In this document: one piece after another, positions 8,850 to 30,000 of the stretch
Position numbering within the stretch: the stretch's first letter is position 1
How the letters are laid out: the number at the start of each line of letters is the position of its first letter
Origin: a bacterium
Lineage (GTDB): Bacteria > Margulisbacteria > Marinamargulisbacteria > GCA-2716485 > JAYNIM01
NCBI GenBank assembly: GCA_038109055.1
Contig: JAYNIM010000001.1
Coordinates: 500,631-564,630 of the forward strand
DNA length: 64,000 bases
Direction of reading: 5' to 3'
The notes under the pieces: generated by a model
The model's input: the letters and a program-made list of their open reading frames with translations, nothing else
Database searches by the model: none
What the model was told of the DNA's origin: nothing
Translations under genes and position numbers: made by a program

Positions 8850-10280
8850 ATGTTTATGTCATTAAAACTAATGCCTATTCTATGTCATAGATTCGGCCTC
8901 TTTCATCATATATTACTATTTCGTTTAAGCTATATGTCTTTTTTTATGCTCCCCTGTCTATCAGCCTTTTTGTTATTTATCCCTTTTATTCTTCCCTCTT
9001 TATTCTATCTCCAATATCTTGCATTTCTTCCTTTATTTTATTTGCTTTCTTTTAGTAAATCTCGCTGTATTTTTGTTATTATATTTATATTCCTTTTTGC
9101 TTATTTGGCTTTACATCATTTATGGTTCTTTTTTCTTTCTCCCTGGATCCCTGTTTTTTATATTTTTATTTTTTATTTTTTTTATATTTTATCTTTAGCT
9201 CTTATTTTTTCTTTGCTGCTGTTTTTCTTACTTTATTGTAGAAAGACCTTTTTATTTTTTATCCCTTTTTGGATATTTTTTGAGTGGGTCTGTGAGCATG
9301 TTTTTTTAAATCCTAGTTTATATCTTGCATACGCTCAAGGAAAAAATTTATTTTTTAGTCAATGGGCCTCAATACTTCCTCTGCCTTTATTTGCTTTTAT
9401 TATTTTATTGCTTAATCTCCTTTTATTTTTTCTTTTCTCTGCACATCACATTAAATTAAGCGTTTGTATGATCCTTTGTGTACTATTTTTTATGCATGCT
9501 CCTGGTTTTATCAGACTACAAAATCAACCCCTTATTAAAGATTATATCTCGGTTGTTGCGATACATGCCCAACATAGTCAACATCAACGTTTAGACCCTA
9601 ATTTATCCCTGATGAACTTTCACGATTATCTTAGCTTGAGTCGTTCTATTTTAGATCAACAATCCGCTAATTTACTTATTTGGCCAGAAACTTCTACATC
9701 TTATTTTGTGATTGACGATCCTAGTATTAAGGAAACGCTTCAGTCTTTCTGTCTACGCTATTCCTGTGATCTAGTTTTGGGTAGCAAGCACGTCGATAAT
9801 GACTTATATTTTAATGGCGCTGCACATTTTCATTCAACTCAAAAAACACCTAATTTTGTTAATAAACATCGCCTTATGCCTATTGGTGAGTACTGGCCCT
9901 TTCCCTTTTTCACTACACGTTATCAACAACTTTTTTCAGTGCACAGCTATACAGCAACTGATTCTATTAAGCTATTTTCTATTTCTAACTACCCTATTGC
10001 TCTTGCTATATGTTTAGATGCCAGTTCTGTCTCTTTATTCCAATCTTTTAAACATCAAGGGGCTGTGGCAGCAATTGTTTTGGCTAATCTTGCTTGGTTT
10101 GAAGATCCATTTATCAAAGAACGGTTTTTTAGGTTCTGCCAATTTCGTGCCATTCAAATGGGTAAATCTCTTTATGTGTTGGCAAATTATGGCCGCTCAG
10201 CCTTATTCAACCCTTTTGGTCAAGCATCTATTGTTTCAGAGGACCGTTTTTCTCATCGCTTCCTTATGCCAATTTACTAA
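8850..10280 (+). CDS. lnt: Apolipoprotein N-acyltransferase
   Basis: Polytopic hydrophobic N-terminal half plus a CN-hydrolase domain with the E/K/C triad context LLIWPETS, NKHRLMPIGEYWPF, ALAICLDAS. Confidence 0.75.
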   Translation: MFMSLKLMPILCHRFGLFHHILLFRLSYMSFFMLPCLSAFLLFIPFILPSLFYLQYLAFLPLFYLLSFSKSRCIFVIIFIFLFAYLALHHLWFFFLSPWIPVFYIFIFYFFYILSLALIFSLLLFFLLYCRKTFLFFIPFWIFFEWVCEHVFLNPSLYLAYAQGKNLFFSQWASILPLPLFAFIILLLNLLLFFLFSAHHIKLSVCMILCVLFFMHAPGFIRLQNQPLIKDYISVVAIHAQHSQHQRLDPNLSLMNFHDYLSLSRSILDQQSANLLIWPETSTSYFVIDDPSIKETLQSFCLRYSCDLVLGSKHVDNDLYFNGAAHFHSTQKTPNFVNKHRLMPIGEYWPFPFFTTRYQQLFSVHSYTATDSIKLFSISNYPIALAICLDASSVSLFQSFKHQGAVAAIVLANLAWFEDPFIKERFFRFCQFRAIQMGKSLYVLANYGRSALFNPFGQASIVSEDRFSHRFLMPIY

Positions 10281-10285
10281 AAAAT

Positions 10286-11098
10286 CTATGTGCTTGTAGT
10301 TGTTAAATCAAATTCTTCATCTAATGATTCTAATGAAATTGGATCTGCATCTAAAAAATCATTTTCTTCAAATAAATCTTCTTCAATACTATTTTCTATT
10401 AATTCCTCATTTGTACCTTTGATACTTTGCATATTCTTTGTTTCTGTAAGCTTATTTAATTCTGTTGTGCTTTGAAAACTATCCTTACGTTCTTTATTTT
10501 GATAGGATTCTTCTCTGTTATTACTTTCTTCTTTGCTACCTACCTCTATCTCATCGTTTTCATAAAATTGCATATATAATGCGTTGAATATACTTTCATC
10601 TAAAGGCGTGTTTTTTACTTTAGTATTTAGTATTCTTGATTTTTCATTTTCAGAGTAATGTTTTAGAATATTTTCTTGTTCTTGAAGGTCTAATTTAGTC
10701 AAAAAAAAGGCGATTGTTTGTACCTGTTCATTTTTTAATATCTCGGCAATTTCACTGTAGCTTCTCTGTGACCTGTCTGGATGACTATCTGCTACCTCTA
10801 ACAGGTCATCATCTTCTTCCGAAGTTTTTTCTTCTTCCTCTTCTTCCTCTATGTCATTTAAAAAATTGTCTTCCTGTATAAGACTCATATCTTCTGGTTG
10901 CTCTAGTGTAATATGATCTACTTCTTCAATAAATTCTGCTATTAATTGGTTTAGCTCTTTTTGAGATGGCATTGGAGGTTGTTCTATTTTTAACAACCTA
11001 GTTAAAGTATCTTGCCGCATGTGCTTTAAAACAGCCTCTGCTTGATTACCTAAAACAGATACTATAACCTTTGCTTTTATATGATTTTCTAGTGTCAC
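10286..11098 (-). CDS. fliG: FliG-like rotor protein: N and middle domains only, with an acidic low-complexity C-terminus
   Basis: Position directly after fliF. The N-domain KAKVIVSVLGNQAEAVLKHMRQDTLTRLL resembles FliG (AAILL.SLGEE.AAEVLKHL.E.EI..L). The middle region EILKNEQVQTIAFFLTKLDLQEQENILKHYSE resembles the EHPQTIA...L motif. Residues ~180-270 are Glu/Asp/Asn-rich with no recognisable C-domain. Confidence 0.55.
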   Translation of the reverse strand: MTLENHIKAKVIVSVLGNQAEAVLKHMRQDTLTRLLKIEQPPMPSQKELNQLIAEFIEEVDHITLEQPEDMSLIQEDNFLNDIEEEEEEEKTSEEDDDLLEVADSHPDRSQRSYSEIAEILKNEQVQTIAFFLTKLDLQEQENILKHYSENEKSRILNTKVKNTPLDESIFNALYMQFYENDEIEVGSKEESNNREESYQNKERKDSFQSTTELNKLTETKNMQSIKGTNEELIENSIEEDLFEENDFLDADPISLESLDEEFDLTTTST

Positions 11099-12588
11099 GT
11101 AAGTACCTCTTCTTTTAATAATTCTTCTAGAGCAGCTGCTATATGTTCTGGGTTTGATGTTGCTTTTTTCTTTAAGTCATCTATATTTCTTTCTTTTTGA
11201 ATCTCTTCTTTTAGTTGTTCAAATTTAGTGACTTCGTTTTGCTTTTTATTCAAAGAGCTACTGCCCTTTTTTCTTGACTTTAAGAAAAAATAAACCAAAG
11301 TTAAGCCCATAGACAACATGCCTATAACACCCCAACTTTCAAAATATTCAAAGATAGTTTTACTTTCATCTTTATAAAAAGGGGCTTTATTAAGAAAAAT
11401 AATATCACGCCCATCTTGATAGCCTATAATTGCGGCTATGGTAGAAAACACCTCTATTTTTTTTGCATCATCCAGCACAATATCTTCGTTATATTCATCG
11501 ACTATTATACTCACCGTTGTTCGTTTAATTTCGGCACTGTTACCGTCTTTTGATGCAGTAATTTCTGCATTTGCAGCTACCTTAAATGAATTTCTAGGAA
11601 AAACTCCAGCCAATTGTTTATTAATTTTACTTAATATATTATTTTCAAAATTTTCTTTTATTGTGAACCATTGTTTAATATTCTCAAAATTTGGAAGTAT
11701 TGGCTGCAATTCTTTTATTTCATCTGATTTTTCTTCTTTCTTTTTATCTAAGAGTCTATCTTTCTCAAAGACTTTTATTTTTTGTTCATTTTTTATTTCA
11801 TCTAAAATACCATAGGACAACTCAGTTCCTTGTGTGTCTACAACTGTTATATTTTTAAGACTTAAGCTTTCTACGGCTTTTGCGACGAGCTGCATAATAC
11901 TATAAACCATGGTTGTGGTTAATGTTTTACCAGGTGTTTTTCTAACCAAAATACTTGCTGTTACTGGGGGCTGTTTTGATATAAATAGACGCTCTTTAGG
12001 CATTACAATTTGAACTTTAGCATCTTCGATCATTTCCAAACTTGTAATGACTTTTTCGAGTTCTCCAGACAAGGCTCTTAAATAACGTACTTTCTTATCA
12101 AATTCTGTGACGCCTAAAGTTTGAGTATTGTCTAATAACTCATAGCCTTTAACAGCACCTGAAGGCAAGCCCTTTGTTGCGAGTAATACCTTTGCAGTTT
12201 CTAATTTTTTACTATCGACTGATAAACTAAAATTCTTTCCTTTTTGTGCCAAGGTAAATGAAATATTTGCAAAGCTTAATTCTTTAATGACTTGTGAGAC
12301 TTGTGTCGCTGGTAATTGTGGGTATAGAACCAGGTATTTTATTTTCTTATCCCGCTTGGTTTTTTTCTTTGTTTGAGATTGTGCCTCATTTTTCCCCTTA
12401 TTTCCCTCTAACCCAATGTCATCATTATCTAAATTAACATAAAATAATAGGCCTCCTATTATTAAGGCTGTCATAATAATGGCAGCCATCCATATATTTT
12501 TTTTATGAAATAACCTAGATGTTTTATCTTGTGTTAAGTTATTTAAATCTTCTTCTAAATCATCAATTATCAAATTTTCTTCTGCCAT
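11095..12588 (-). CDS. fliF: Flagellar MS-ring protein FliF
   Basis: Two TM segments (IWMAAIIMTALIIGGLLFYV; VIGMLSMGLTLVYFFL) flank a YscJ/FliF-type periplasmic domain (SQVIKELSFANISFTL, AKVLLATKGLPSG, YLRALSGELEKVITSLEMIEDAKVQIVMP). Confidence 0.85.
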   Translation of the reverse strand: MAEENLIIDDLEEDLNNLTQDKTSRLFHKKNIWMAAIIMTALIIGGLLFYVNLDNDDIGLEGNKGKNEAQSQTKKKTKRDKKIKYLVLYPQLPATQVSQVIKELSFANISFTLAQKGKNFSLSVDSKKLETAKVLLATKGLPSGAVKGYELLDNTQTLGVTEFDKKVRYLRALSGELEKVITSLEMIEDAKVQIVMPKERLFISKQPPVTASILVRKTPGKTLTTTMVYSIMQLVAKAVESLSLKNITVVDTQGTELSYGILDEIKNEQKIKVFEKDRLLDKKKEEKSDEIKELQPILPNFENIKQWFTIKENFENNILSKINKQLAGVFPRNSFKVAANAEITASKDGNSAEIKRTTVSIIVDEYNEDIVLDDAKKIEVFSTIAAIIGYQDGRDIIFLNKAPFYKDESKTIFEYFESWGVIGMLSMGLTLVYFFLKSRKKGSSSLNKKQNEVTKFEQLKEEIQKERNIDDLKKKATSNPEHIAAALEELLKEEVLT

Positions 12589-12594
12589 AACTAC

Positions 12595-13173
12595 CTAAAT
12601 TTGCATTGATATTAATTCTTTGAATGTTTGAGATGCAGTTGAAATAACCGTGGTTGCAAAGCTTATTGCTAAGTTTAATTTTGTCGTTTCAATCGATACC
12701 TCCTCGATTGATACTTTCCCTTCTACATATTTTTGCATAAGGTCATTTACTCTAAATTCTAACTGGCTAACACTGTTTAATGATTTAACGGCTTGTTCAC
12801 TAAAATACTGAAAAGGTGTGATCTCTAGTGCATGGTCAAAATTTAAATATTCTAATTTTTCCTCTTCTTTCGTTTCTGCATCAAATAGCTCTTTTGTTCT
12901 TTTTTTTCTATCTTGAATTGTTAAATTTGGATCATTTGCAGTTGCTGCTTGTGCAATTAAGACATGTTGATTTAAGTTAATTGGGTTATTTTGTATTGTT
13001 ACTTGTGGTAGTGGATTTTTTTCCTGAGTTTTATTATCCATTATTCCATCTAACAATAACTTAAACTCATTTTTTATTTCTGGTTTTACGATATTTTGCG
13101 CAAAGGATGTTGCTGATGTTGTGGGGTTTACGTTGTTAAGAGGGTTTATATTAAGGGGACTTATATTACTCAT
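12595..13173 (-). CDS. fliE: Flagellar hook-basal body protein FliE with a long N-terminal extension
   Basis: Position between flgC and fliF. The C-terminal ~80 aa fit the FliE pattern, ending ...ASQTFKELISMQI (compare ..AYQEIMRMQV). Confidence 0.6.
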   Translation of the reverse strand: MSNISPLNINPLNNVNPTTSATSFAQNIVKPEIKNEFKLLLDGIMDNKTQEKNPLPQVTIQNNPINLNQHVLIAQAATANDPNLTIQDRKKRTKELFDAETKEEEKLEYLNFDHALEITPFQYFSEQAVKSLNSVSQLEFRVNDLMQKYVEGKVSIEEVSIETTKLNLAISFATTVISTASQTFKELISMQI

Positions 13174-13174
13174 A

Positions 13175-13630
13175 TTATTTCATTAACTCTATTGCACTTT
13201 GATACATTGATTTGCTAACTTTTAATGCGGTTATGTTTGCCTCATATACGGCCTCTGTAAATGTTAATGTCATCATCTCATTAGGCAGATTAACATTTGG
13301 ATAATAAAAATAACCATTTTCATCCGCTTGAGGTGCGGCTGGATCAAAATAACGCCCGAAAGGTTCTGTACTTCTTTTTATTCCAGTTACTTTTACCCCG
13401 TCTTTAAATTTTTCTAGTTGAATATATTTCTTTTGATAAGGTAATCCTGTTTCTTCGTCTTTTAAAGTATTTAAGTTTGCAACATTTTCTGCGATAATCA
13501 TCATTTTTGTTCTCTGTGCTAAAATCCCCGATATATTTATAGAAAATGAATCATCTAAATTTGAAACTGCATAGACTGAGTATGATACGTATACTGTTAT
13601 TATACATATAATTGCCGTTATTCTATTCAT
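13175..13630 (-). CDS. flgC: Flagellar basal-body rod protein FlgC
   Basis: ISGILAQRTKMMIIAENVANLNT (rod-protein N-motif) and C-terminal NVNLPNEMMTLTFTEAVYEANITALKVSKSMYQSAIEL. A ~25 aa hydrophobic N-terminal extension is present. Confidence 0.85.
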   Translation of the reverse strand: MNRITAIICIITVYVSYSVYAVSNLDDSFSINISGILAQRTKMMIIAENVANLNTLKDEETGLPYQKKYIQLEKFKDGVKVTGIKRSTEPFGRYFDPAAPQADENGYFYYPNVNLPNEMMTLTFTEAVYEANITALKVSKSMYQSAIELMK

Positions 13631-14043
13631 TATTGTTTACCTAGTGTCACTACTTTTCTTAAATTCTCTACGCGTTTTTTATAAAGTGTATATAACGCTT
13701 GTTGCCGTTTGTTGTTTTCTGCAATTTTTCCCATAAAATGTTCTATCATTACTTTCGAAAAGTATGCTTTATCTTCTGTTTCAACATTAAACAAGCGCTC
13801 TAATTCGGCTCTATCTTCTGGTAATAAAATTGGCCTAAATTTTGGTGTTGTGGCATTTGCTATGTTGTATGAATATATCGCATGTTTTTGGTTACTATAT
13901 TTTATAGCACGCTCTAATACCATCCCTGTTGAATCTTCAAGTATATGTCCTTTTGTTTTACTTTTTGCTATATCTAGTTTTTGTGCTAGTAAGGACGTAG
14001 TTAAACTTATAAATATAGCTATTACCAGTATTCTCGCTATCAT
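13630..14043 (-). CDS. flgB: Flagellar basal-body rod protein FlgB
   Basis: LERAIKYSNQKHAIYSYNIANATTPKF parallels FlgB L.LRA.RQ.VLA.NIANADTPGY. Gene order is flgB-flgC-fliE. Hydrophobic N-terminal extension present. Confidence 0.7.
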   Translation of the reverse strand: MIARILVIAIFISLTTSLLAQKLDIAKSKTKGHILEDSTGMVLERAIKYSNQKHAIYSYNIANATTPKFRPILLPEDRAELERLFNVETEDKAYFSKVMIEHFMGKIAENNKRQQALYTLYKKRVENLRKVVTLGKQ

Positions 14044-14052
14044 ATTTTTTGT

Positions 14053-14778
14053 TTATATATAAATATCTTTTTCTTCTAATTCTAAATATCTCTTAATTAA
14101 TTTTAACGCTTCCATATGGACTCTGCAAACTTTGCTTTTGGACACCTTTAATTTCTCTGCAACTTCGTTTTGTTTCATGTTACTTTGATAAATTAATTGT
14201 ATAACTTCTTTCTTAGCTGATTCTAATTTATTCACAATATTCCATATATTTGTTGTACTTTCAATATACGCTTCTTCTATATCTCTTCCACACGTATTGG
14301 CGGTAGAAAATTTCTCTAAATCGTTGGTATTTAGTAGATAGGATACGGATGACTGTGTCACGATCTCATTTAATGTTTTTTCAAAACTTTGTCTATTTGC
14401 TTTATTTTTATCGTCGAGTATATTCTCCGTAATCTCCATCATTTTTTCTTGTATATTTTCTCTATATCTTGCGTATTCAGCAGGATTCTTTTGTTTCCAT
14501 TCCAACCTCAAATTATCCATTATCTGACCTTGAATACGATAATATGCGTAGGTTTTAAAATTAGATTCTTTTTTTTCTTTGTATTGCACTTTCGCTTTAA
14601 TCAAGCCTTCAATACCCCAACTGATTAAATCCTCTTTTTCAACACCTGAAGGTATTTTAGACTTCATAAATATTTTACTCGCAACTCCTTTAACTAGAAT
14701 TAAATGGTCATCGATAAATGCTTGTGATACTTGCTGTTGTAATATCTCTTCTTTGCTATTCATATTTATGTTAGTCAA
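14053..14778 (-). CDS. fliA: Flagellar sigma factor FliA (sigma-28 family)
   Basis: Region 2 EDLISWGIEGLIKAKVQYKEKKESNFKTYAYYRIQGQIMDNLR. Region 4 HTH MKQNEVAEKLKVSKSKVCRVHMEALKLIKRYL. Embedded in the flagellar operon. Confidence 0.8.
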   Translation of the reverse strand: MTNINMNSKEEILQQQVSQAFIDDHLILVKGVASKIFMKSKIPSGVEKEDLISWGIEGLIKAKVQYKEKKESNFKTYAYYRIQGQIMDNLRLEWKQKNPAEYARYRENIQEKMMEITENILDDKNKANRQSFEKTLNEIVTQSSVSYLLNTNDLEKFSTANTCGRDIEEAYIESTTNIWNIVNKLESAKKEVIQLIYQSNMKQNEVAEKLKVSKSKVCRVHMEALKLIKRYLELEEKDIYI

Positions 14779-15406
14779 TTAATTTTTGTTTTGTTTTGTG
14801 TATATATATGATATCTCTTTCTTCATTATAATCTATAGTATCAGATACGATTAAAAAAACAGATTCTTCTATTTTTTCATCTAAACTATTCTCTTGTGCT
14901 AATATACTTATACTCTTTTTTTGAATAGTGCTATTATTTTTATTTAACTCTACTCTTGAGACTATTCTAAAGGATTTTTCTGGGAATGCTTCTCTCAACT
15001 TTCTTTTTACTCTATTGGATAAATTGTTTTCTATATGTTCTTTCCGTGAGAGTGATGCATCTTTGGGCAAAAATTTTTCCTCAAACTTTAATAAATCCAT
15101 TTTTGCAAGTTTATCTGCCATTTCTTTAGCTAGCAGATCATTGATCATGTCACTTTGTGTCACATCTATATAATCGATATCTTCATCTATAAATATTTCC
15201 ATTTTTTTAAAAGCAGGTTCCGTTAAAATCTTCTTGATAAAAAAAGACTGCATAAACTGGACTGCTTCTTTTCTTGTTCTGGGTTTTTTATTATTATACA
15301 AACTTGAAGAATAATGATTAGCCGCTAATGGTATTCCTTCGTAACTCATTGATGGAATAGCATAACTAATAGCAATAATACCTATAATTATTATAATTTT
15401 GTTCAA
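14771..15406 (-). CDS. Flagellar-operon protein in the flgJ position: signal peptide, rod-binding-like segment and a FliF-like C-terminal segment
   Basis: Lies between flgI and fliA. KEAVQFMQSFFIKKILTE resembles the FlgJ rod-binding motif (..QFE..F...ML..M). The C-terminus (FPEKSFRIVSRVE...IDYNEERDIIYIHK) resembles FliF 11095-12588 (FPRNSFKVAANAE...IGYQDGRDIIFLNK). Confidence 0.4.
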   Translation of the reverse strand: MNKIIIIIGIIAISYAIPSMSYEGIPLAANHYSSSLYNNKKPRTRKEAVQFMQSFFIKKILTEPAFKKMEIFIDEDIDYIDVTQSDMINDLLAKEMADKLAKMDLLKFEEKFLPKDASLSRKEHIENNLSNRVKRKLREAFPEKSFRIVSRVELNKNNSTIQKKSISILAQENSLDEKIEESVFLIVSDTIDYNEERDIIYIHKTKQKLID

Positions 15407-16476
15407 ATGATTTCAATGTTTGCTATCAGTGCGCCTGCTTCTTTTAGTGCTTGTATAATTGAAATTAAATCTCTTGGAGAAGCACCAATTTCATTTAAAG
15501 TATCTACTAAGCTTGATAGTGTTTCGTTTGATTTTAAATATACTAACTTTTTCTTCTCTTCATCAATTTCTAACTGATTTTGCTGATCTGATATTGCACC
15601 TGCTTGTGGTTCTGTAATTCGAATAGATACAGCCCCATGTGTCAAGGCTACAGGGCTTAAACGCACCATTTCTCCAATTACAATGGTACCTGTTCTTTCA
15701 TTAATGACAATTTTTGCTGATTGGTCAGGCTTTACTGAAATATTTTCTAATTTTGCAATGGTACTAATTAAATTTGCTGAATTCAAATCTGTTAATGGTA
15801 TTTTAATTTGTCTAGCATCTAATGCTTTTGCACCTAAAAAGCCCTCATCATGGATGGCATTAACTGCACGATCTATAGTTATAAAATTTGAATCATTTAA
15901 AACAATGGAGATATTGTGCACATCTGTAAAGGTGACGGGAACTTCTTTTTCTACAATGGCCCCATCTGTGATAATTCCAACTGTTGGTTTGTTTTTAGCA
16001 TACATAATGGTACTTGAACGCTGTGCTGCACCTCCCACTACAACCGAACCTTGGCCAACAGCATAAACTCTCATATCAGCACCTTTCAAGGGGGTCATCA
16101 ATAAGGTACCTCCATCTAAACTAGATGCATCTCCGAGTGCTGATACCGTTAGTGAAATCCGTTGTCCTGACTTTACAAATGCGGGTAGGGTTGCTGTCAC
16201 CATCACGGCTGCCGTGTTTCGTATATTACCAACACTACCTACTTGTACACCCATTTTAACTAATAAATTTCTCAGTGCAGTTGGTGTAAAAAAGGTATTT
16301 CGACTGTCACCAGTACTTTTCAATCCAACCACTAAGCCAAATCCAATTAATTGGTTATCTCTCATTTCTACAATTTTTGAAATATCTTTTAACCTTACTT
16401 CTACAGCAAAGCTTGCTGTAGTAAAGCTAAATAATACTAGTAGTAACAATGCTCGTTTCATTTTTAAAATACCCAA
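15403..16476 (-). CDS. flgI: Flagellar P-ring protein FlgI
   Basis: Signal peptide followed by RLKDISKIVEMRDNQLIGFGLVVGLKSTGD and full-length FlgI-like sequence, ending ...LKEAGALIANIEII. Confidence 0.9.
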   Translation of the reverse strand: MGILKMKRALLLLVLFSFTTASFAVEVRLKDISKIVEMRDNQLIGFGLVVGLKSTGDSRNTFFTPTALRNLLVKMGVQVGSVGNIRNTAAVMVTATLPAFVKSGQRISLTVSALGDASSLDGGTLLMTPLKGADMRVYAVGQGSVVVGGAAQRSSTIMYAKNKPTVGIITDGAIVEKEVPVTFTDVHNISIVLNDSNFITIDRAVNAIHDEGFLGAKALDARQIKIPLTDLNSANLISTIAKLENISVKPDQSAKIVINERTGTIVIGEMVRLSPVALTHGAVSIRITEPQAGAISDQQNQLEIDEEKKKLVYLKSNETLSSLVDTLNEIGASPRDLISIIQALKEAGALIANIEII

Positions 16477-17072
16477 TTAAATATCCTACTTATTATTCCT
16501 GGATTCTGCTTGGCTGCAACTGGTCCCCCTCTACCGCTTACTGAAACCTCAGCTTTTGCAATTTGATACGAAAAAATAGTATTCTTTGGAGTCACATCTG
16601 CAGGCCGCACAATCCCAGATACTCGAATAGTTTCGATGTCATGATTCACTTTAACCTTGTGTTCTCCCACTACAAATAAATTCCCGCTCTTTAACACTTC
16701 TGTCACAATTGCCGTTATAATTGCCTTTACGTTGCTTTTTCTCGTCGTTTGTCCATTGCCTTGATATCTATCACCCCCGCCTATAGAGATATCTCGTTTT
16801 TTCCTCACTCGTTCATTGCCTAATAAATTAGCCACTTGATCCCAATTGTCTGCAAGTGATGAGGTTAGTGAGGTTGTTTTTCCTGAAGAGGTGCTCGCCT
16901 GTTGTACAGCGGAGGTGGATTCGGATACGTAGATAGTAACGATATCCCCCACTGAAATTCTTCGTCGCGATGGTTGGTATATGCCTTCACTATAGGTTCT
17001 CCATAATGAATCTGCCCCAATAGATGTTGTTACTAAGATTAATAAACTAATCAATATAAATATTTTTTTCAT
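16464..17072 (-). CDS. flgH: Flagellar L-ring protein FlgH
   Basis: Signal peptide, SLW....RR..VGDIVTIYVSE, then ITAIVTEVLKSGNLFVVGEHKVKVNHDIETIRVSGIVRPADV, the typical FlgH core. Confidence 0.85.
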   Translation of the reverse strand: MKKIFILISLLILVTTSIGADSLWRTYSEGIYQPSRRRISVGDIVTIYVSESTSAVQQASTSSGKTTSLTSSLADNWDQVANLLGNERVRKKRDISIGGGDRYQGNGQTTRKSNVKAIITAIVTEVLKSGNLFVVGEHKVKVNHDIETIRVSGIVRPADVTPKNTIFSYQIAKAEVSVSGRGGPVAAKQNPGIISRIFNWVF

Positions 17073-17784
17073 CTATCACTTTTCCTTTTAATCGTTTTAG
17101 TGTTGATAATTTTGATGTTACCGGTATGTACCCACCTATTTGACCATCCGCTAATGCTTGTCCATCAACTTTTATTTGCCCCCATTTTTTATTTATTAAA
17201 ATTGATATAGGATCACCTTTTTGTATTGCTGGTTTTTCTTCTATGGCTAAATAATGTACCTGTGTATTTTTAGGAATACTACGTTTTGCTATTTTTCCTA
17301 TCATTTCTTCCTTAGTAAATATATAATTCTGCAGGGTTGATAATTTTGAATAAATTAATTTTTCTTTCATGATTAAATCAGACTCTGTAATCATTTTACC
17401 TCGTTGAATCAAGTGCTTTGTGACAGGCATTTTTGTGGTTGCTTCTATTTTTAATAAAAGGGTCTGTCTTTCTAGAAGAGTCCCCTGCCGGTCATAGAAA
17501 AAAATCGGCTGTATTTGAGTCCCCAGTAAATCGTTGATTTTAGGGTCTGGACATTTAAAATAACTGGCTTTTTCAGGTATATCTAATTTTGTTAAATCAA
17601 TTTTGAATGTCATTTTAAAGGTCATTAATTCTGCATTTATATTTCCCAGAACATGCTCTAATTTTTGTCGATAGACAGTTCTGACTTCTTTTTTGATATC
17701 TGCTAGACTCACCGCAGCATGAATCGTATTTATCGCTAGACTCACAATCAAACTAATAATAAAAAAAAGCCTACTTAATGTCAC
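17047..17784 (-). CDS. flgA: Flagellar P-ring assembly chaperone FlgA
   Basis: Signal peptide and C-terminal SAF/FlgA pattern (IAKRSIPKNTQV....IQKGDPISILINKKWGQIKVDGQALADGQIGGYIPV). Position upstream of flgH/flgI. Confidence 0.7.
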   Translation of the reverse strand: MTLSRLFFIISLIVSLAINTIHAAVSLADIKKEVRTVYRQKLEHVLGNINAELMTFKMTFKIDLTKLDIPEKASYFKCPDPKINDLLGTQIQPIFFYDRQGTLLERQTLLLKIEATTKMPVTKHLIQRGKMITESDLIMKEKLIYSKLSTLQNYIFTKEEMIGKIAKRSIPKNTQVHYLAIEEKPAIQKGDPISILINKKWGQIKVDGQALADGQIGGYIPVTSKLSTLKRLKGKVIDEKNIYID

Positions 17785-18568
17785 TTCCAGCCTTTAGCAT
17801 ATCATCGGATGCTTTCATTGCTTTAATAACCGTTTCAAAGGAACGTTGACACATCAGCATTTCCATCATTTCAGAGATAATATCTACATTTGAAAATTCC
17901 AATGATCGTTGCCTGATAGACCCCATGCCCTGTTCACCCGGTATAATTAATTGTGGATCCCCAGAGCTTTCTGTTTCTTGCATTAAATTTTGGCCAATAT
18001 CTTTTAAACCTTCTGGATTCATAAACTTTGCTAAGACCATCTGTCCAATTTCTTGTTGTTGAGTATCTCCATCTAATAAGGCAAAAATTCGGCCTTCTTG
18101 ATTCACAATAATTTCTCTTGCTTCTAAAGGGATAGTTAATGGTGGATCTAAGGGATGTCCGCTAGAATTTAATACTCTTCCTTGACTGTCTACATGAAAA
18201 TTTCCTGCTCGACTATAAGCGGCGCTTCCATCTGGCAATTGAAACTGAAACATACCATTCCCTTCGATTGCCATATCCATTTGCCTGTTTGTTACTTCGA
18301 TTGTTCCAGTACTAAAGTTCTTTGTAATACCCACGAACCGAACACCTTGACCAAACTCGATATATTTTTTTCTACGTTTGCTGCTACCTGTTTCTTCATC
18401 AGACTCCGTCACAGCTCTTTCAAAAATTAATGGAAACAAACTTTCCATCTCTAAGCGTCTTTCCTTATATCCTGGTGTTTGTGCATTTGAGATATTATTT
18501 GTAATAACCTGCATTTTTCGTTGAAACGAATATAATGCTGATTTTGCCATATGTAATTGAGATAACAT
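17771..18568 (-). CDS. flgG: Flagellar distal rod protein FlgG
   Basis: MAKSALYSFQRKMQVITNNISNAQTPGYK N-motif and C-terminal LEFSNVDIISEMMEMLMCQRSFETVIKAMKASDDML. Confidence 0.9.
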   Translation of the reverse strand: MLSQLHMAKSALYSFQRKMQVITNNISNAQTPGYKERRLEMESLFPLIFERAVTESDEETGSSKRRKKYIEFGQGVRFVGITKNFSTGTIEVTNRQMDMAIEGNGMFQFQLPDGSAAYSRAGNFHVDSQGRVLNSSGHPLDPPLTIPLEAREIIVNQEGRIFALLDGDTQQQEIGQMVLAKFMNPEGLKDIGQNLMQETESSGDPQLIIPGEQGMGSIRQRSLEFSNVDIISEMMEMLMCQRSFETVIKAMKASDDMLKAGSDIK

Positions 18569-18586: not shown

Positions 18587-19393
18587 TTAATTTGGTGCGG
18601 CAATTTGTGTCGCTGTATTGGCTGATCGTGCCAATACTTTAAGAACCTTTGCATTTGATTGATACCCATTTGTTGCATAGGTTATATCTCCTACTAAGGC
18701 TTTTACTACATTATTTTCTTCTATATGACCTTGTACAACTTTATAGTACTCAACCCCACTCAAAATTTCAGCCTCTTCTACTAGTACAAATACGGATCCA
18801 TTCAGTGAATTGAGCTTTTGCATTTCTTTATAGGAGGCAAATACCGCTACTTTTATACGATCTACTTCTTCACCATCTACGTATATCATTCCAGATCGTG
18901 ACACAACAACATCGCCTTTAGGCAAGTATATTGGCCCTTTATCACCTAATACGGGATAATTTCCGGCAACAGTGACTAAACGGTCACTCCCATCTCTCGT
19001 GAAGCGCCCATCTCGGGTATAACCCAGAGTTGTTTTTAATTGTATAACAAAAAAACCTTTACTCATCGCATCTATGTAAAAATCTAATGGTCTATGTGTT
19101 TCAACGACCGGACCTGCTCGCCAACGATAAAAAGGAATGGCATCTATTCGTTTCTCTCCATTCTTATCAATCATTCTTGAATTAAACGCGCCTGTTTCGA
19201 TAAAGCCTGGTGTGTTTACATTCATGGTGTAAAACAACCAATTACTCCACTGAATTTGAAAAGCCCTCATTGCTTGCATACTTCCATTAGCGGCAATATC
19301 TTGAATCTCACCATAATCCTCATAAGAAGAAAGGTTACTCGTTATGATAAGTAGACATACTATCAAGGTCTTTATTTTATTAATACCGTTCAT
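18587..19393 (-). CDS. flgF: Flagellar proximal rod protein FlgF
   Basis: NVNTPGF N-motif, GYTRDGRFTRDGSDRLVTVAGNYPVLG core, C-terminal IEENNVVKALVGDITYATNGYQSNAKVLKV. Upstream of flgG. Hydrophobic ~35 aa N-terminal extension. Confidence 0.7.
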   Translation of the reverse strand: MNGINKIKTLIVCLLIITSNLSSYEDYGEIQDIAANGSMQAMRAFQIQWSNWLFYTMNVNTPGFIETGAFNSRMIDKNGEKRIDAIPFYRWRAGPVVETHRPLDFYIDAMSKGFFVIQLKTTLGYTRDGRFTRDGSDRLVTVAGNYPVLGDKGPIYLPKGDVVVSRSGMIYVDGEEVDRIKVAVFASYKEMQKLNSLNGSVFVLVEEAEILSGVEYYKVVQGHIEENNVVKALVGDITYATNGYQSNAKVLKVLARSANTATQIAAPN

Positions 19394-19408: not shown

Positions 19409-19780
19409 TTATTTTCTTTTTAGTTTCTTATTAATCTTATTTCGTTTATCCGATAATTTTTCAAGTTGATACGCAAAGGCTAACACCTCTGCTATTATAG
19501 CATATAATTTTGATGGTATATGTTGATTCAATTCTAATTTAGACAACAAATTACTTAATACGGGATCTTCATACAGAGGTATTTTGTGATCTTCTGCAAT
19601 ATGTAAAATCATTTCAGCAATTGAGGCTTTACCAGATGCAACGATTTTTGGGGCCTTGTCTTTTTCAATATCATATTTTATTGCGACTGCTTTTAACTTT
19701 TCTTTTTTGGGTAGATTTAACTGATCAATACGTTTCTTAAAGTTGATCTTATGTTTCTTCTGATTCTCGTTTGCCATCAT
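19409..19780 (-). CDS. FlhB C-terminal-domain-like protein (EscU/YscU/FlhB cytoplasmic domain paralogue, YlqH-type)
   Basis: KAVAIKYDIEKDKAPKIVASGKASIAEMILHIAEDHKIPLYEDPVLSNLLSKLELNQHIPSKLYAIIAEVLAFAY matches the FlhB_C pattern (A.AL.Y......AP.VVAKG....A..I...A.E..IP......L...L......I.......VAE...). Confidence 0.75.
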   Translation of the reverse strand: MMANENQKKHKINFKKRIDQLNLPKKEKLKAVAIKYDIEKDKAPKIVASGKASIAEMILHIAEDHKIPLYEDPVLSNLLSKLELNQHIPSKLYAIIAEVLAFAYQLEKLSDKRNKINKKLKRK

Positions 19781-20994
19781 GCCTCTGTACTAATATGTGT
19801 TAACCTATCTAAATCAAAATTTGGACATAACAATTCTTTTACCGGGATCTTTTTATCCATATATTTCACACCTTTAACTTTATAGTTAATGGCTTCCATT
19901 TGCTTTATTAAATCTGGAACCAAACTTGAAATTATCCGTTTTGTTTCTCCGTCTTTGCTATTAAACGTATATATTAGCGTATTCTCTATGACATTGATCA
20001 CAATACTTAATTCCCCAATATTTTCTGTTTCAAACTTAATGATCATGGTTGTTTTATCTTCATTTATCTGTGAGTTTTGTTTATTATTTCGTTTTTGAAT
20101 GAGGATATCCATATTATTTACTGGCGAGGCTAATAAATTTGGTATTTGCCAAAAATGAAACAAGTCTGCCTTAATCATAAACTGTGACTCTTTGGATAAG
20201 ACCAAATAAGCTAAACTATGATCAATATATTTTTCTAGTGATTTTTGCGTTTTCTCAAAAACTTCTTTGAGGCTTTGTTGTTGATATACATCTTTTATTT
20301 GAGTCAGTATTTTTTTATCCATCCCTTTTAGAAGACTCAAAAACAGTTTCGACTCTTTCATTAACCCAACATATTTTTCAACTTTAAAATTCAGCATGTT
20401 CTTTTTATCAAATCTGTAAAATTGTAACTTCTCATCTATTGCCGCTACTATCGCCGCTAAATGTTGCGTAAAAGCAGGACTCAATCCATCCTTAGAGGCG
20501 TGCATCGCTGCTTGTAATGCTTGTAAGTTTTGCTGTAATTGTTTGACTGTCCCTGTTAAATCTAATTCATTTGATAAAAATTGTTTTAACACAGAAATAC
20601 TTTTACCGTTCCCTTTTAAATTTTTAGCAATTGATAAGACGATAGACTCTAAATCCTTTGATGACGTCTTTCCTTTCATCAAATTATCAATTATTTCAAA
20701 ATAATCTTGATTCAAAGGAACTCCATAAGAAAGCATCGTCATGCCAATCCTCATATTATCAACATTGGGACTCTTACCAAAACTTAAGAGTTGATTCATG
20801 ATGTCATCTTTCGAATAGGGCTGTCGTTTACTTTCTGTTTTTTTTGTTGTTGAACGCACATCTTCTGATTGTGCTGTATGAATAGATGATACATTCGTTT
20901 CGTGACTTGTCTTTGATAGGGATCTACTTTGAGATTCCTCCGGAAGCTTGGGAGGTTGCGCACGATGTGATGAACCGGGAACTGATAAATTCAT
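19777..20994 (-). CDS. fliK: Flagellar hook-length control protein FliK-like
   Basis: Disordered Ser/Thr/Pro-rich N-terminus. The C-terminal block IIKFETENIGELSIVINVIENTLIYTFNSKDGETKRIISSLVPDLIKQMEAINYKV fits the FliK C-domain pattern (L.P..LG.L.V.I.......F.......R..L...L..L...L). First gene of the flagellar operon. Confidence 0.55.
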   Translation of the reverse strand: MNLSVPGSSHRAQPPKLPEESQSRSLSKTSHETNVSSIHTAQSEDVRSTTKKTESKRQPYSKDDIMNQLLSFGKSPNVDNMRIGMTMLSYGVPLNQDYFEIIDNLMKGKTSSKDLESIVLSIAKNLKGNGKSISVLKQFLSNELDLTGTVKQLQQNLQALQAAMHASKDGLSPAFTQHLAAIVAAIDEKLQFYRFDKKNMLNFKVEKYVGLMKESKLFLSLLKGMDKKILTQIKDVYQQQSLKEVFEKTQKSLEKYIDHSLAYLVLSKESQFMIKADLFHFWQIPNLLASPVNNMDILIQKRNNKQNSQINEDKTTMIIKFETENIGELSIVINVIENTLIYTFNSKDGETKRIISSLVPDLIKQMEAINYKVKGVKYMDKKIPVKELLCPNFDLDRLTHISTEA

Positions 20995-27079: not shown

Positions 27080-30000
27080 ATGTCTATGAGTACCCCTGGT
27101 TTACCTCCAGGTTCAAGTTTACCTCAAGCTTTACATTCGCACCCCTATGCATCTGTTGCTCTTCCCAATGCTGTTGCTGCTTCCGATACTACGTCCTCTA
27201 CTGCTGCTACGGCTCTTTCTCCTCTTGCTTCTGCTTCTGGAGATGGGCCTAAATTTGATATTACTTCTCCGGATACCGAATCGGCTATTAAGTCTATTAG
27301 GGAGACAACGTCACATTTAAACAAATTATACGACGCTGATAAACGCACTAAAAACTTTGCTACATTTCGAGCACAACGTGACACGGAGATCAGCGCAATG
27401 AATAAGTTTTTTAAGACTGATCCCGACTCAATCTGCCCTTTACTTCTATTAGAGACTATCGGAGCTCAAACTGAGACTCTTTTTAGTTCCAATGTAGATA
27501 CGACTTGCGGAATCATCGCAAAGGATGCTGAAGAGTTACGTAAAGTTCAAAATAAATTTTTCTTATTTGCTAAAGTAGCTGCAGTGCTGCTTCAACGGAT
27601 TCTTGATGATGCACAGACTAAGCTTAATAAATTGGCTCTTAAACGTGCTATTACCTTATTTTCGCAATTAATGACTGTCTTAAAAGCTAATCTTGATCCC
27701 ACATATCAATATCAAGCTGATATTCATGTCTTGAATGACTATTTTTCTGCTGCTGTTAAGGGAACCCCTCAACATGGTGGGCGTATGCTAGAAAAAAAAT
27801 GGTTCGCTTATTTTCCTGTCAAGCCTTCTAAGGATCGGATCACGTTATTAAAGGATGTTGATGGTAGTGATACTGAGTTACTTGAAGATTCATACTTTGA
27901 TACACATAAGTTTAATCTTGGGGAAAACACTTGTTATCTTGGTTATCAAAGCAACTCTTCAACCCCTCCTTCTACGGCTAAAATAGATCTAGATTTATTT
28001 CGACTGAGCTATTGTGGTACGAAGACACATCACGGGTCTGTTTTTGGCCCTCACGTTTCATCTGAGACTAGGATTTCCTTAGGTTCTAAACTTTATCAGG
28101 AGCTTATAGACTTAAACGATCCCCTAATCCAGTCTAAACTAACTCCGTCTACTTCTGATATCAGTTATACTGAACTGCAAGAATTGATTTCTTATGTCGC
28201 TGAACTTCCTCACACTAGAGATGATTTATTAGCTTCATTACTTTCTCTAAATGACGGTATTTCAACGGCTCAGGCACGTTCTCTTGCGAAAGATACTCTT
28301 AGGGCTGAAAAGTGTGAGGATGTTCTTGGAATCAACAATCCTGGAAACCACTGCTATGCAAATGCCACCATACAAATGCTACGCTCTTTGCCGCAGACAT
28401 TTCGCGATTATCTGGAATCAGTCCCTTTTCCACCTGACGCTATTTCTTTATCTGATCCTCTATACGCAAACTTCGTAGCAGATAATATTGTTCATTTAAA
28501 GGATCTTCTTGATCCTAAAACTTCAGCAAAAGATGCTAATACTGCTCTTTCAGCTATATTGAAATCCTTTGATGACGAGAACGACACTGATTTTAATACA
28601 GCTCAACAAGATCCTCATGAGTTACTCACTCAGATCATTTCATGTTTCTTACCTGATCTTAATGATCATTCCAGATTACAGGAGTATGCAACTAAGACAG
28701 GCATGCCTATTCATGTTAAAAGTCACTATGTATCTAGTAATTTTTCTTCTCATCGTGCACAAATTGGTCCAGTAGAATATAACTGGTTCGATGAGTTCCA
28801 GGTTCAAGAACTAGATGATTCCCACAATGCTCAAGATACCTTTCTAGCTCCGAAAAAGAGAGAAAGTGAACTAAACGGGAATGGAGGATGTGTTAATGCT
28901 GATGTGCTTGCCTATTATGATCAGCATAAAGGCACCTTAAGTGCCTCAGAACAACAGGCCATTGATGGAGCTGGACTTAGTGAGCAGCAAAAGGTGGCAC
29001 TTATTATGCAGACATTCACAAACAAGGATTCCTCCCTTGATTTTTCTCAGGTAAAACAAGTTGATGTTAAAGAGACTATCTTTCCTTCAACTCGTTCTGA
29101 TGATCCGCCTATACGCCATCTTTCCTTTAGACGTGATGCTCAAAATGGCAGAAAACTCACCAACCCAGTCGACTTAACTCACACAACGTGTATTATCGTT
29201 CATCAAGGTCCGTCGATGAATCAAGGTCATTATGTGACCTATCGTCTTCTCGAACAATATGGACAAGATAATATCTGGGTATGTTTAAATGATGGGAGAT
29301 CTACAATTTGTTCTGACCCTCGAAATGATCCGACTATACGTGCAAACGCTGTCTATGCGATTTATGACGCAACTGCCCCTCCTGTTGTTGCTGCCAGTAG
29401 TCGAGACACAGTTGATCTGTTTAGACCCTTAGCTGCTGCTTCTGCTGAGGCTGCTGGATCTTCAGTCCCATTGCCTGCTGTTCGAGGTATTGCTGCGTCT
29501 GGGTATTTACATCACCTTCAACAACAACATTTCAGACAGGATCCTCACATAGGGCTAGATATGCAACATGTTGCCCATGATACTATTGCTTTTAATGAAG
29601 AAAACCATGCGACGGGTGTATTATCGAATACAGCACGTGCCCCTTTTAAGGCAAAGGTACCCTATCATGGACCCGAACAAGAAAAAGAGTTTCCATCAGC
29701 TGAACATTATTTTCATTATATGAAATTGGCTTATATTGAACAGAATTCTACCCATGGGCTATTACATGGTAACGACCCACAAACTAAGGAATACTGGCTT
29801 AAACGCATGTTACCTCTACAAGGTTCACAGTTGCAAGATCAGTGTGATGACTGGGGATTCAATGACGCTTTTAAATCACCTGGCGTTCCCGAATGGCATG
29901 ACGAGGGTAAAAAAAAAGTGATGTGGGATGCCTTATGCCTCAAATATCAGGCCCCTCATAACCAAGAGTTTAGAAAGATGATCAATGAAATAGCTAGGTG

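Follow-up and report, generated by a model that had tools for sequence, protein, structure and literature searches.

In a 64,000-nucleotide stretch of a marinamargulisbacterial genome (assembly GCA_038109055.1, contig JAYNIM010000001.1, positions 500,631 to 564,630 of the forward strand; hereafter the window, with coordinates counted from its first nucleotide), we found that the proximal rod proteins FlgB, FlgC and FlgF of a flagellar basal-body operon begin with hydrophobic segments resembling classical Sec signal peptides. Current models of flagellar assembly have all axial proteins pass the type III gate and the growing channel, and only ring proteins and chaperones use Sec. The best reading of the segments, which we consider moderately probable from the sequences, is Sec export of the three proteins and their cleavage by signal peptidase I, after which the proximal rod would be built up from subunits pooled in the periplasm. 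What would be new here is an unexpected export route for known proteins of a known machine.

Identity and translation starts of the rod proteins

The operon lies on the minus strand and reads, in transcribed order, fliK-like, a stand-alone FlhB C-terminal-domain gene (FlhB-C), flgF, flgG, flgA, flgH, flgI, ORF211 (an open reading frame (ORF) and candidate FlgJ-like gene), fliA, flgB, flgC, fliE, fliF and a fliG-like gene. The proximal rod gene flgB (13630-14043, minus strand, 137 amino acids) is placed by the fliA-flgB-flgC-fliE synteny and has orthologues in all 22 of the loci compared below; its predicted signal peptide comprises residues 1-20 (13984-14043, minus strand; MIARILVIAIFISLTTSLLA, followed by QKLD), with an R4 n-region, an L-L-A↓Q site (the arrow marks the predicted cut) and a 12-residue Kyte-Doolittle (KD) maximum of 2.86. 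In flgC (13175-13630, minus strand, 151 amino acids), the predicted signal peptide spans residues 1-21 (13568-13630, minus strand; MNRITAIICIITVYVSYSVYA, followed by VSNLDD), with a V-Y-A↓V site and a KD maximum of 2.71. The third gene, flgF (18587-19393, minus strand, 268 amino acids), has a predicted signal peptide at residues 1-23 (19325-19393, minus strand; MNGINKIKTLIVCLLIITSNLSS, followed by YEDYGEI), with K6 and K8 in the n-region and a KD maximum of 2.57; here the cut site was set by alignment to orthologues (...LFA↓YEHYDEV, ...ANA↓YVHYDEV, ...LYA↓FDDYGEI).

FlgC passes the equivalog model TIGR01395 (102.6 bits, cut-off 102.1), with residues 28-151 matching profile positions 3-137, and Pfam Flg_bbr_C is also above its cut-off. 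Its AlphaFold model (mean predicted local distance difference test score, pLDDT, 68) folds residues 2-22 into a separate helix that ends in a break at 23-24, followed by a D0 helix at 25-55, a beta-hairpin and a C-terminal helix. In the PDB, the nine best Foldseek matches of this model are all to chains from the solved proximal rods of Salmonella and Vibrio (∼30% identity). The nearest FlgC relatives are from single-cell genomes and metagenome-assembled genomes (MAGs) of Candidatus Marinamargulisbacteria, including an identical protein on one MAG contig. FlgB reached 24.8 bits against TIGR01396, below the cut-off of 59.05 (residues 39-108, profile positions 4-74), and FlgB models alone match it among the NCBIfam models. 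Because it lies directly upstream of flgC and carries the rod motif NIANATTPKF, we regard it as a divergent FlgB orthologue despite the score. For FlgF, TIGR02490 was the best NCBIfam match (82.8 bits, short of the cut-off of 178.5), Pfam LlgE_F_G_D1 was passed (34.7 bits, cut-off 27), and the position of the gene directly upstream of flgG supports the assignment.

The family profiles begin well inside FlgB, FlgC and FlgF (in FlgF, the NF009280 match begins at residue 33, profile position 7, while the FlgG match begins at residue 5, profile position 2), and the extensions are therefore true additions of about 25-35 residues. The profiles begin just after the predicted cuts, and the predicted mature proteins would be of canonical family length. 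The mature parts are homologous to the type III-exported FlgB, FlgC and FlgF of Salmonella and E. coli, sharing D0 helices and the beta-hairpin, and the gene neighbourhood (fliE, fliF, flgG, flgA, flgH, flgI) is that of canonical rod operons. However, canonical rod proteins start 3-10 residues before the rod motif with a hydrophilic N-terminus (114 of 114 FlgC representatives), whereas those described here have some 20-25 extra residues with an n/h/c architecture.

The N-termini of the three proteins quoted in an earlier note on this DNA were exact, and its gene positions on the minus strand were confirmed. That note had pointed to tight gene coupling: the flgC ATG does overlap the flgB stop (TAATG), and flgB closely follows fliA, starting 9 nt after the fliA stop (10 nt in the note). 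Its remark that FlgG and FliE lack such an extension was right for hydrophobic ones, which neither protein has, but FliE carries a hydrophilic extension of about 100 residues. It had also considered that the real starts could lie downstream, for instance at the Met of GMVLERA in FlgB, and this is essentially ruled out by observations on each gene. In flgC the first in-frame ATG, GTG or TTG after codon 1 is that of Met43, which falls within the conserved rod motif. In FlgB, most orthologues lack Met41 of the window protein, while all 22 loci retain the hydrophobic segment. In FlgF, the residues upstream of Met39 form a motif conserved as protein, Y-x-x-Y/F-x-E-V/I (YEHYDEV, YVHYDEV, FDDYGEI, YTDYNEI), and the orthologue in locus L013 has no equivalent of Met39. 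The orthologue alignment, which the note had proposed as a check, found the extensions kept in kind across the 22 genomes. Dual translation starts may occur in FlgB (Met41) and FlgF (Met39) of this one genome, although neither Met is conserved.

Signal-peptide character and occurrence across lineages

We scored the segments with a heuristic of our own, a 12-residue KD maximum of at least 2.0 together with a small-residue -3/-1 site behind the hydrophobic core. It was run on all proteins of the operon and their orthologues, which were taken from 22 loci with the same operon, each with 10 kb of flanking sequence on both sides, in species-representative genomes (their labels are Marinamargulisbacteria or Margulisiibacteriota, with others mislabelled as Rickettsiales or Actinomycetota). 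The Sec substrates FlgA (17047-17784), FlgH (16464-17072) and FlgI (15403-16476, all minus strand) served as internal positive controls. The internal negative control was the distal rod protein FlgG (17771-18568, minus strand; TIGR02488, 260 bits, above cut-off, from residue 5), and FliE (12595-13173, minus strand, 192 amino acids; Pfam FliE at residues 124-192) and FliK (fliK-like, the first gene of the operon, 19777-20994, minus strand; Pfam Flg_hook) were scored alongside it; no signal peptide is predicted for any of the three in the window.

By this heuristic, FlgB was signal-peptide-like in 22/22 cases, FlgC in 20/23 and FlgF in 18/20, and the three FlgC misses look signal-like once non-ATG starts are allowed. 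The Sec controls gave comparable fractions (FlgA 17/18, FlgH 21/21, FlgI 18/21), while none was found in FlgG (0/20), FliE (0/21), FliK (0/16) or the stand-alone FlhB-C (0/16), nor in FliA and FliG. As a background, 13 of the 49 window ORFs of at least 150 amino acids were positive. Median 12-residue KD maxima were 2.66, 2.50 and 2.38 for FlgB, FlgC and FlgF, against 2.6-3.0 for FlgA, FlgH and FlgI and below 1.4 for FlgG, FliE and FliK. A basic n-region, with K or R in the first 12 residues, was present in FlgB 22/22, FlgC 19/20 and FlgF 16/18; it is followed by a hydrophobic core of 12-17 residues, a c-region containing P, S or G and an A-x-A-type site, often A↓Q.

The cut sites were called with a crude site picker of our own. 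Alanine stands at -1 in 41 of 60 proteins (FlgB 15/22, FlgC 15/20, FlgF 11/18), and nearly every protein has A, G or S there; the residue at -3 is V, L, S, A or I, and the site composition is the same as in FlgA, FlgH and FlgI. In our own scoring, the sites have the small neutral residues at -1/-3 and the absence of proline at +1 that are expected of Sec signal peptides. Glutamine at +1 is frequent (FlgB 10/22, FlgC 13/20; FlgI of the same genomes 6/20), and the median predicted lengths of 21, 20.5 and 24.5 residues for FlgB, FlgC and FlgF compare with 23, 23 and 21.5 for FlgA, FlgH and FlgI. The last 14 signal residues are 16-19% identical between orthologues, compared with 42-59% for the mature parts of FlgB, FlgC and FlgF, and the mean hydrophobicity of the signals is held near 1.9-2.0 despite this divergence, a pattern also shown by FlgA, FlgH and FlgI. 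Likewise, among 27 homologues, the flgC segment is hydrophobic yet not conserved in sequence. Judged by the heuristic, the segments of FlgB, FlgC and FlgF appear indistinguishable from the Sec signals of FlgA, FlgH and FlgI of the same operons, which they match in length, hydrophobicity, -3/-1 residues and frequent +1 Gln.

Other classes of N-terminal signal were looked for and rejected. The Tat motif (S/T-R-R-x-F-L-K) was found in 0 of the 60 Margulisbacteria orthologues, a lipobox ([LVI][ASTVI][GAS]C) in FlgB 1/22, FlgC 0/20 and FlgF 0/18, and a type IV prepilin-like signal (Gly, then F/M, and Glu at +5) in 0/60. The distinction from ordinary FlgC was equally sharp among cluster representatives drawn from a library of 1.84 billion proteins: 0 of the 114 that begin at the canonical position were signal-peptide-like, their 12-residue KD value never exceeding 1.6, compared with 25 of the 29 that are N-terminally extended.

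The signal is present on FlgB, FlgC and FlgF in essentially all orthologues of the 22 loci, which come from marine, lake and groundwater Margulisbacteria. In the more distant, AT-rich locus L024, which has the same operon, FlgC and FlgF carry the signal, and FlgB (MENKTINS...) and the FlgJ-like protein are canonical. The L026 lineage (flgBC-fliEFGHIJ, with a full-length FliG) carries it on FlgC only, FlgB being canonical. Outside these, about 30 FlgC clusters of 150-167 amino acids have clear signals (e.g., ...SFAG↓S, ...ANAG↓A, ...AHAQ↓G); the named proteins closest to them are FlgC of canonical form, 135-140 amino acids long, from Rhodospirillales and other Alphaproteobacteria. In this uncultured alphaproteobacterial clade, FlgB is also signal-like in all three contigs examined (L023, with Tim44-SecB synteny; L027, a TARA contig; and L028, which encodes FliX, a regulator of Alphaproteobacteria), and the two contigs that include fliE (L023 and L027) have FliE in canonical form. 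Since the occurrence is scattered over separate lineages, the feature has had more than one origin; FlgC carries it most often. A profile search with a mixed alignment of signal-bearing FlgC proteins drifted to generic FlgC, mostly of Firmicutes, and was replaced by a single-sequence search and contig look-ups. In L028, FlgB (9540-10001) begins with a twin arginine (MTRRNAVTYAL...), which could mean Tat rather than Sec in that contig.

Proposed export route and alternative explanations

On the reading that we hold moderately probable, FlgB, FlgC and FlgF, and probably the FlgJ-like protein, are made as precursors with classical Sec-type signals, with SecYEG translocating them and signal peptidase I cleaving at the A-x-A-type site, often A↓Q. 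Cleavage would release rod subunits of family length into the periplasm, and from that side they would polymerise on the FliE/FliPQR platform, which lies within the membrane/supramembrane (MS) ring. The type III channel of the flagellum would remain the route for FliE, for FlgG of the distal rod, for FliK and, presumably, for hook and filament proteins. All steps after translation (Sec targeting, cleavage and periplasmic assembly) we infer from the sequences. The signal is confined to axial parts that stay in the periplasm, and the N-termini of FlgG, FliE and FliK of the same operon are hydrophilic; therefore, the type III system of this lineage needs no long hydrophobic signals. In vitro, seeds are extended by flagellin and by hook protein from bulk solution, and the addition of subunits from outside the growing axial end is therefore physically possible. 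The wider claim, a mixed-route assembly in which type III export serves only FliE and the parts from FlgG outward, fixed in the sampled Margulisbacteria, independently evolved at least once more in the alphaproteobacterial clade and limited to FlgC in a further lineage, stands in our judgement evenly balanced between true and false.

Several points weigh against Sec export of the rod. The classification of the signals comes from our own heuristic with its internal controls. Rod subunits, whose termini are disordered, could be broken down in the periplasm, and the access of FlgB from outside to FliE within the MS-ring collar may be questionable. To our knowledge, a mixed-route rod is without precedent. 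A canonical second set of rod genes may exist elsewhere in these genomes, 10-kb flanks being what our comparison covered. With no torque domain on the FliG of the operon, this may be something other than an ordinary rotating flagellum, and neither FlgB nor FlgF reaches its family cut-off. The textbook route for axial proteins is type III export (PMC8298488), and early type III substrates use a short hydrophobic N-terminal signal (PMC8983047).

Among the alternatives, the one that survives best, though we think it unlikely, is that the segment is an enlarged form of this short type III signal, with export still proceeding through FlhAB-FliPQR and the segment perhaps assisting gate opening. In its favour, virulence type III systems are able to export proteins that contain transmembrane segments. 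Moreover, Salmonella FlgD and FlgE need small hydrophobic N-terminal residues at a distance of ∼27 residues or more upstream of the gate-recognition motif, and these have been proposed as the trigger of gate opening (PMC8983047). The early type III signal is alike in placing hydrophobic residues upstream of the folded or D0 part, but it consists of a few small hydrophobic residues in a polar, disordered N-terminus without a cleavage site (Bryant et al., 2022; PMC8983047), whereas the segments described here have a 12-17-residue core, a basic n-region and an A-x-A-type c-region. Unlike those of FlgG, FliE and FliK, the precursor N-termini of FlgB, FlgC and FlgF are not polar, and a gate-recognition motif is not locatable in them by sequence. 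An enlarged type III signal also sits poorly with its absence from the substrates of the same operon (FlgG, FliE and FliK, 0 of ∼57 orthologues), with the full n/h/c architecture and -3/-1 sites identical to those of FlgI and FlgA, and with 12-residue KD values of 2.5-3 in the range of the Sec controls, a level that none of the 114 canonical FlgC representatives reaches. Further, an uncleaved hydrophobic helix of 20 residues in each of 16 subunits would lie in or near the rod channel.

We find it a little less credible still that the segments are uncleaved signal-anchors tethering FlgB, FlgC and FlgF to the inner membrane, either permanently, as part of a non-rotating base, or transiently, like pilins, until their extraction into the rod. 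In hydrophobicity the segments would suffice to cross a membrane or insert partway into it, AlphaFold models a helix over residues 2-22 of FlgC, and FliG is without its C-terminal torque domain in several lineages, so the machine might be a non-rotating one. Type IV pilins and type II pseudopilins are alike in being fibre subunits with an N-terminal hydrophobic helix, Sec/SRP (signal recognition particle) delivery and assembly from the membrane or periplasmic side. The rod proteins, in contrast, have no homology to them, no G↓F(M)xxxE motif (0/60, which also counts against the anchor reading) and a segment that is not conserved in sequence. A packing helix would be expected to be conserved or periodic, and the segments, at 16-19% identity, are neither; their uncharged cores are mostly of only 12-17 residues and end in P/S/G-containing c-regions with A-x-A-type sites. 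The feature is shared, moreover, by the alphaproteobacterial clade and by the L026 lineage, whose FliG is full-length.

It is improbable, and somewhat more so than an anchor, that the operon is a degenerate or repurposed flagellar relic of host-associated bacteria, in which FlgB, FlgC and FlgF are periplasmic but form no drive shaft, or in which a canonical rod set is encoded elsewhere. The eukaryote-like ubiquitin C-terminal hydrolase (UCH) and NADAR proteins of the window, a protein 80% identical to FlgC within a eukaryote assembly, the truncated FliG, the scores of FlgB and FlgF below family cut-offs and the intracellular symbiosis of one member of the Marinamargulisbacteria (PMC6784892) could all be taken in that direction. 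Nevertheless, the operon genes are all intact in the canonical rod-and-ring synteny, FlgC and FlgG pass their equivalog cut-offs, and the mature parts are 42-63% identical across MAGs and single-amplified genomes from free-living pelagic, lake and groundwater populations; the feature is found likewise in Alphaproteobacteria and in one lineage whose fliFGHIJ set is complete.

By far the least credible alternative is that the long starts are annotation artefacts. In its favour, Met41 of the window FlgB and Met39/Met42 of FlgF align with the first residues of canonical FlgB and FlgF. Against it, flgC offers no alternative start, FlgB orthologues mostly do not retain Met41, the stretch of FlgF from the cut site to Met39 shows conservation at the protein level, and the segment, its K/R n-region and the cut site are kept in 22 genomes and in other phyla. 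The earlier note had left three options side by side, of which a cleaved Sec-type signal appears favoured by the short h-regions, the helix-breaking P/S/G residues, the A↓Q site, the sequence turnover and the canonical mature length; a membrane anchor is less favoured, and wrong starts are set aside.

Sec export is not foreign to flagella as such. Spirochaete FlaA and Rhodobacter SltF are among the Sec-dependent flagellar parts. FlgH and FlgI are Sec substrates with cleavable signals (PMC8298488), and the signal of FliP is cleaved (PMC12403130). However, the known Sec-dependent parts are rings, a chaperone, a gate subunit, a sheath and an enzyme, and none belongs to an axial rod, hook or filament family. 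Full-text literature searches returned no report of Sec signals on flagellar rod or other axial proteins, and nothing on flagella was found in the papers on Marinamargulisbacteria that were consulted. A Liberibacter paper considered as a possible precedent deals with a peptidoglycan hydrolase.

The view of the earlier note that Sec routing would be a marked departure from known basal-body assembly stands, and the departure would be wider than it had seen, extending across the phylum, arising convergently in Alphaproteobacteria and including the FlgJ-like protein. If true, type III export is not an intrinsic requirement for that part of the axial structure which lies in the periplasm, and the earliest axial layers can form from subunits arriving outside the channel. 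This would bear on the opening and capping of the gate, the roles of FlgJ and FliE, the order of export and the evolutionary recruitment of the axial structure to the secretion system. For annotation, gene callers or curators trimming such N-termini would erase the feature.

Other features of the locus and possible host association

ORF211 (14771-15406, minus strand) occupies the flgJ position between flgI and fliA and has a predicted signal peptide at residues 1-16; in its family, the N-terminus is signal-peptide-like in 19 of 20 loci. The rod-binding domain of FlgJ (PF10135) gave weak matches in two of seven ORF211 orthologues (E ∼0.01, 16.5-16.9 bits, cut-off 25.1); in ORF211 of the window itself there was no match to PF10135, and the gathering score was not reached. 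An hhalign comparison with an approximate N-terminal sequence of Salmonella FlgJ gave E 0.0023 at a probability of 12%, and a PDB sequence search with the FlgJ-like profile returned nothing relevant. The C-terminal part of ORF211 resembles residues 311-401 of FliF, part of its periplasmic domain (BLASTP E 9e-12). The orthologues elsewhere are of 103-155 amino acids, and the FliF-like part is present in 0 of the 5 detected by BLAST. From position and weak similarity, ORF211 is a candidate, probably FlgJ-like, rod-binding protein, an assignment that we treat as a lead. The family is like single-domain FlgJ (PF10135) in following flgI and in its weak similarity to the rod-binding motif, but it differs in the Sec-type signal and, in the window copy, in the FliF-like C-terminal fusion. 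Known FlgJ proteins are type III substrates.

Several other genes of the operon have unusual forms. The gene in the fliG position (10286-11098, minus strand), the last of the operon, has FliG_N and FliG_M domains only. There and in L007 (12713-13339), L018 (12689-13336) and L024 (12896-13441), it encodes a protein of 180-270 amino acids with FliG_N and FliG_M similarity, an acidic tail and no torque-generating FliG_C, and FliG_C is missing from this gene in every Margulisbacteria-type locus examined. Either FliG is truncated across the lineage, or its C-terminal function is encoded elsewhere. In one related contig, the short fliG-like gene is directly followed by fliH and fliI. The ∼100-residue hydrophilic N-terminal extension of FliE is rich in N, P and T and precedes the FliE domain; the protein is of 187 amino acids in L007, 213 in L018 and 114 in L024. 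The stand-alone FlhB-C (19409-19780, minus strand, 123 amino acids; Pfam Bac_export_2), the second gene of the operon, has no predicted signal peptide, corresponds to positions 262-334 of PF01312, lies between fliK-like and flgF and is kept in 15 loci. Enterobacterial FlgH is a lipoprotein; here, a lipobox was found in none of 20 FlgH orthologues, and the predicted signal peptidase I site is A↓DSLW. The operon also contains fliA (14053-14778, minus strand), a sigma-28-type factor with Pfam Sigma70_r2 and Sigma70_r4, and fliF (11095-12588, minus strand; TIGR00206, 143 bits). An Rfam scan of the whole window gave no matches.

Outside the operon, two very large paralogues (27080-30202 and 31118-35056, both plus strand) share a nearly identical C-terminal NADAR-domain region, and the first also has a UCH domain of eukaryotic type; the pair look like host-interaction effectors. 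The FlgC that is 80% identical to the window protein comes from a EukProt eukaryote assembly (COSAG01). Ruthmannia eludens, a member of the Marinamargulisbacteria, is a symbiont of the placozoan Trichoplax (PMC6784892). Together, the EukProt FlgC, the UCH protein and Ruthmannia eludens suggest that relatives live in or on eukaryotic hosts. Each of the two paralogues is followed by an identical 255-amino-acid ORF of the outer-membrane-like DUF481 type (30250-31017 and 35104-35871, plus strand), and a direct repeat at 29432 and 34286, 99-100% identical, marks a recent tandem duplication of ∼4.85 kb.

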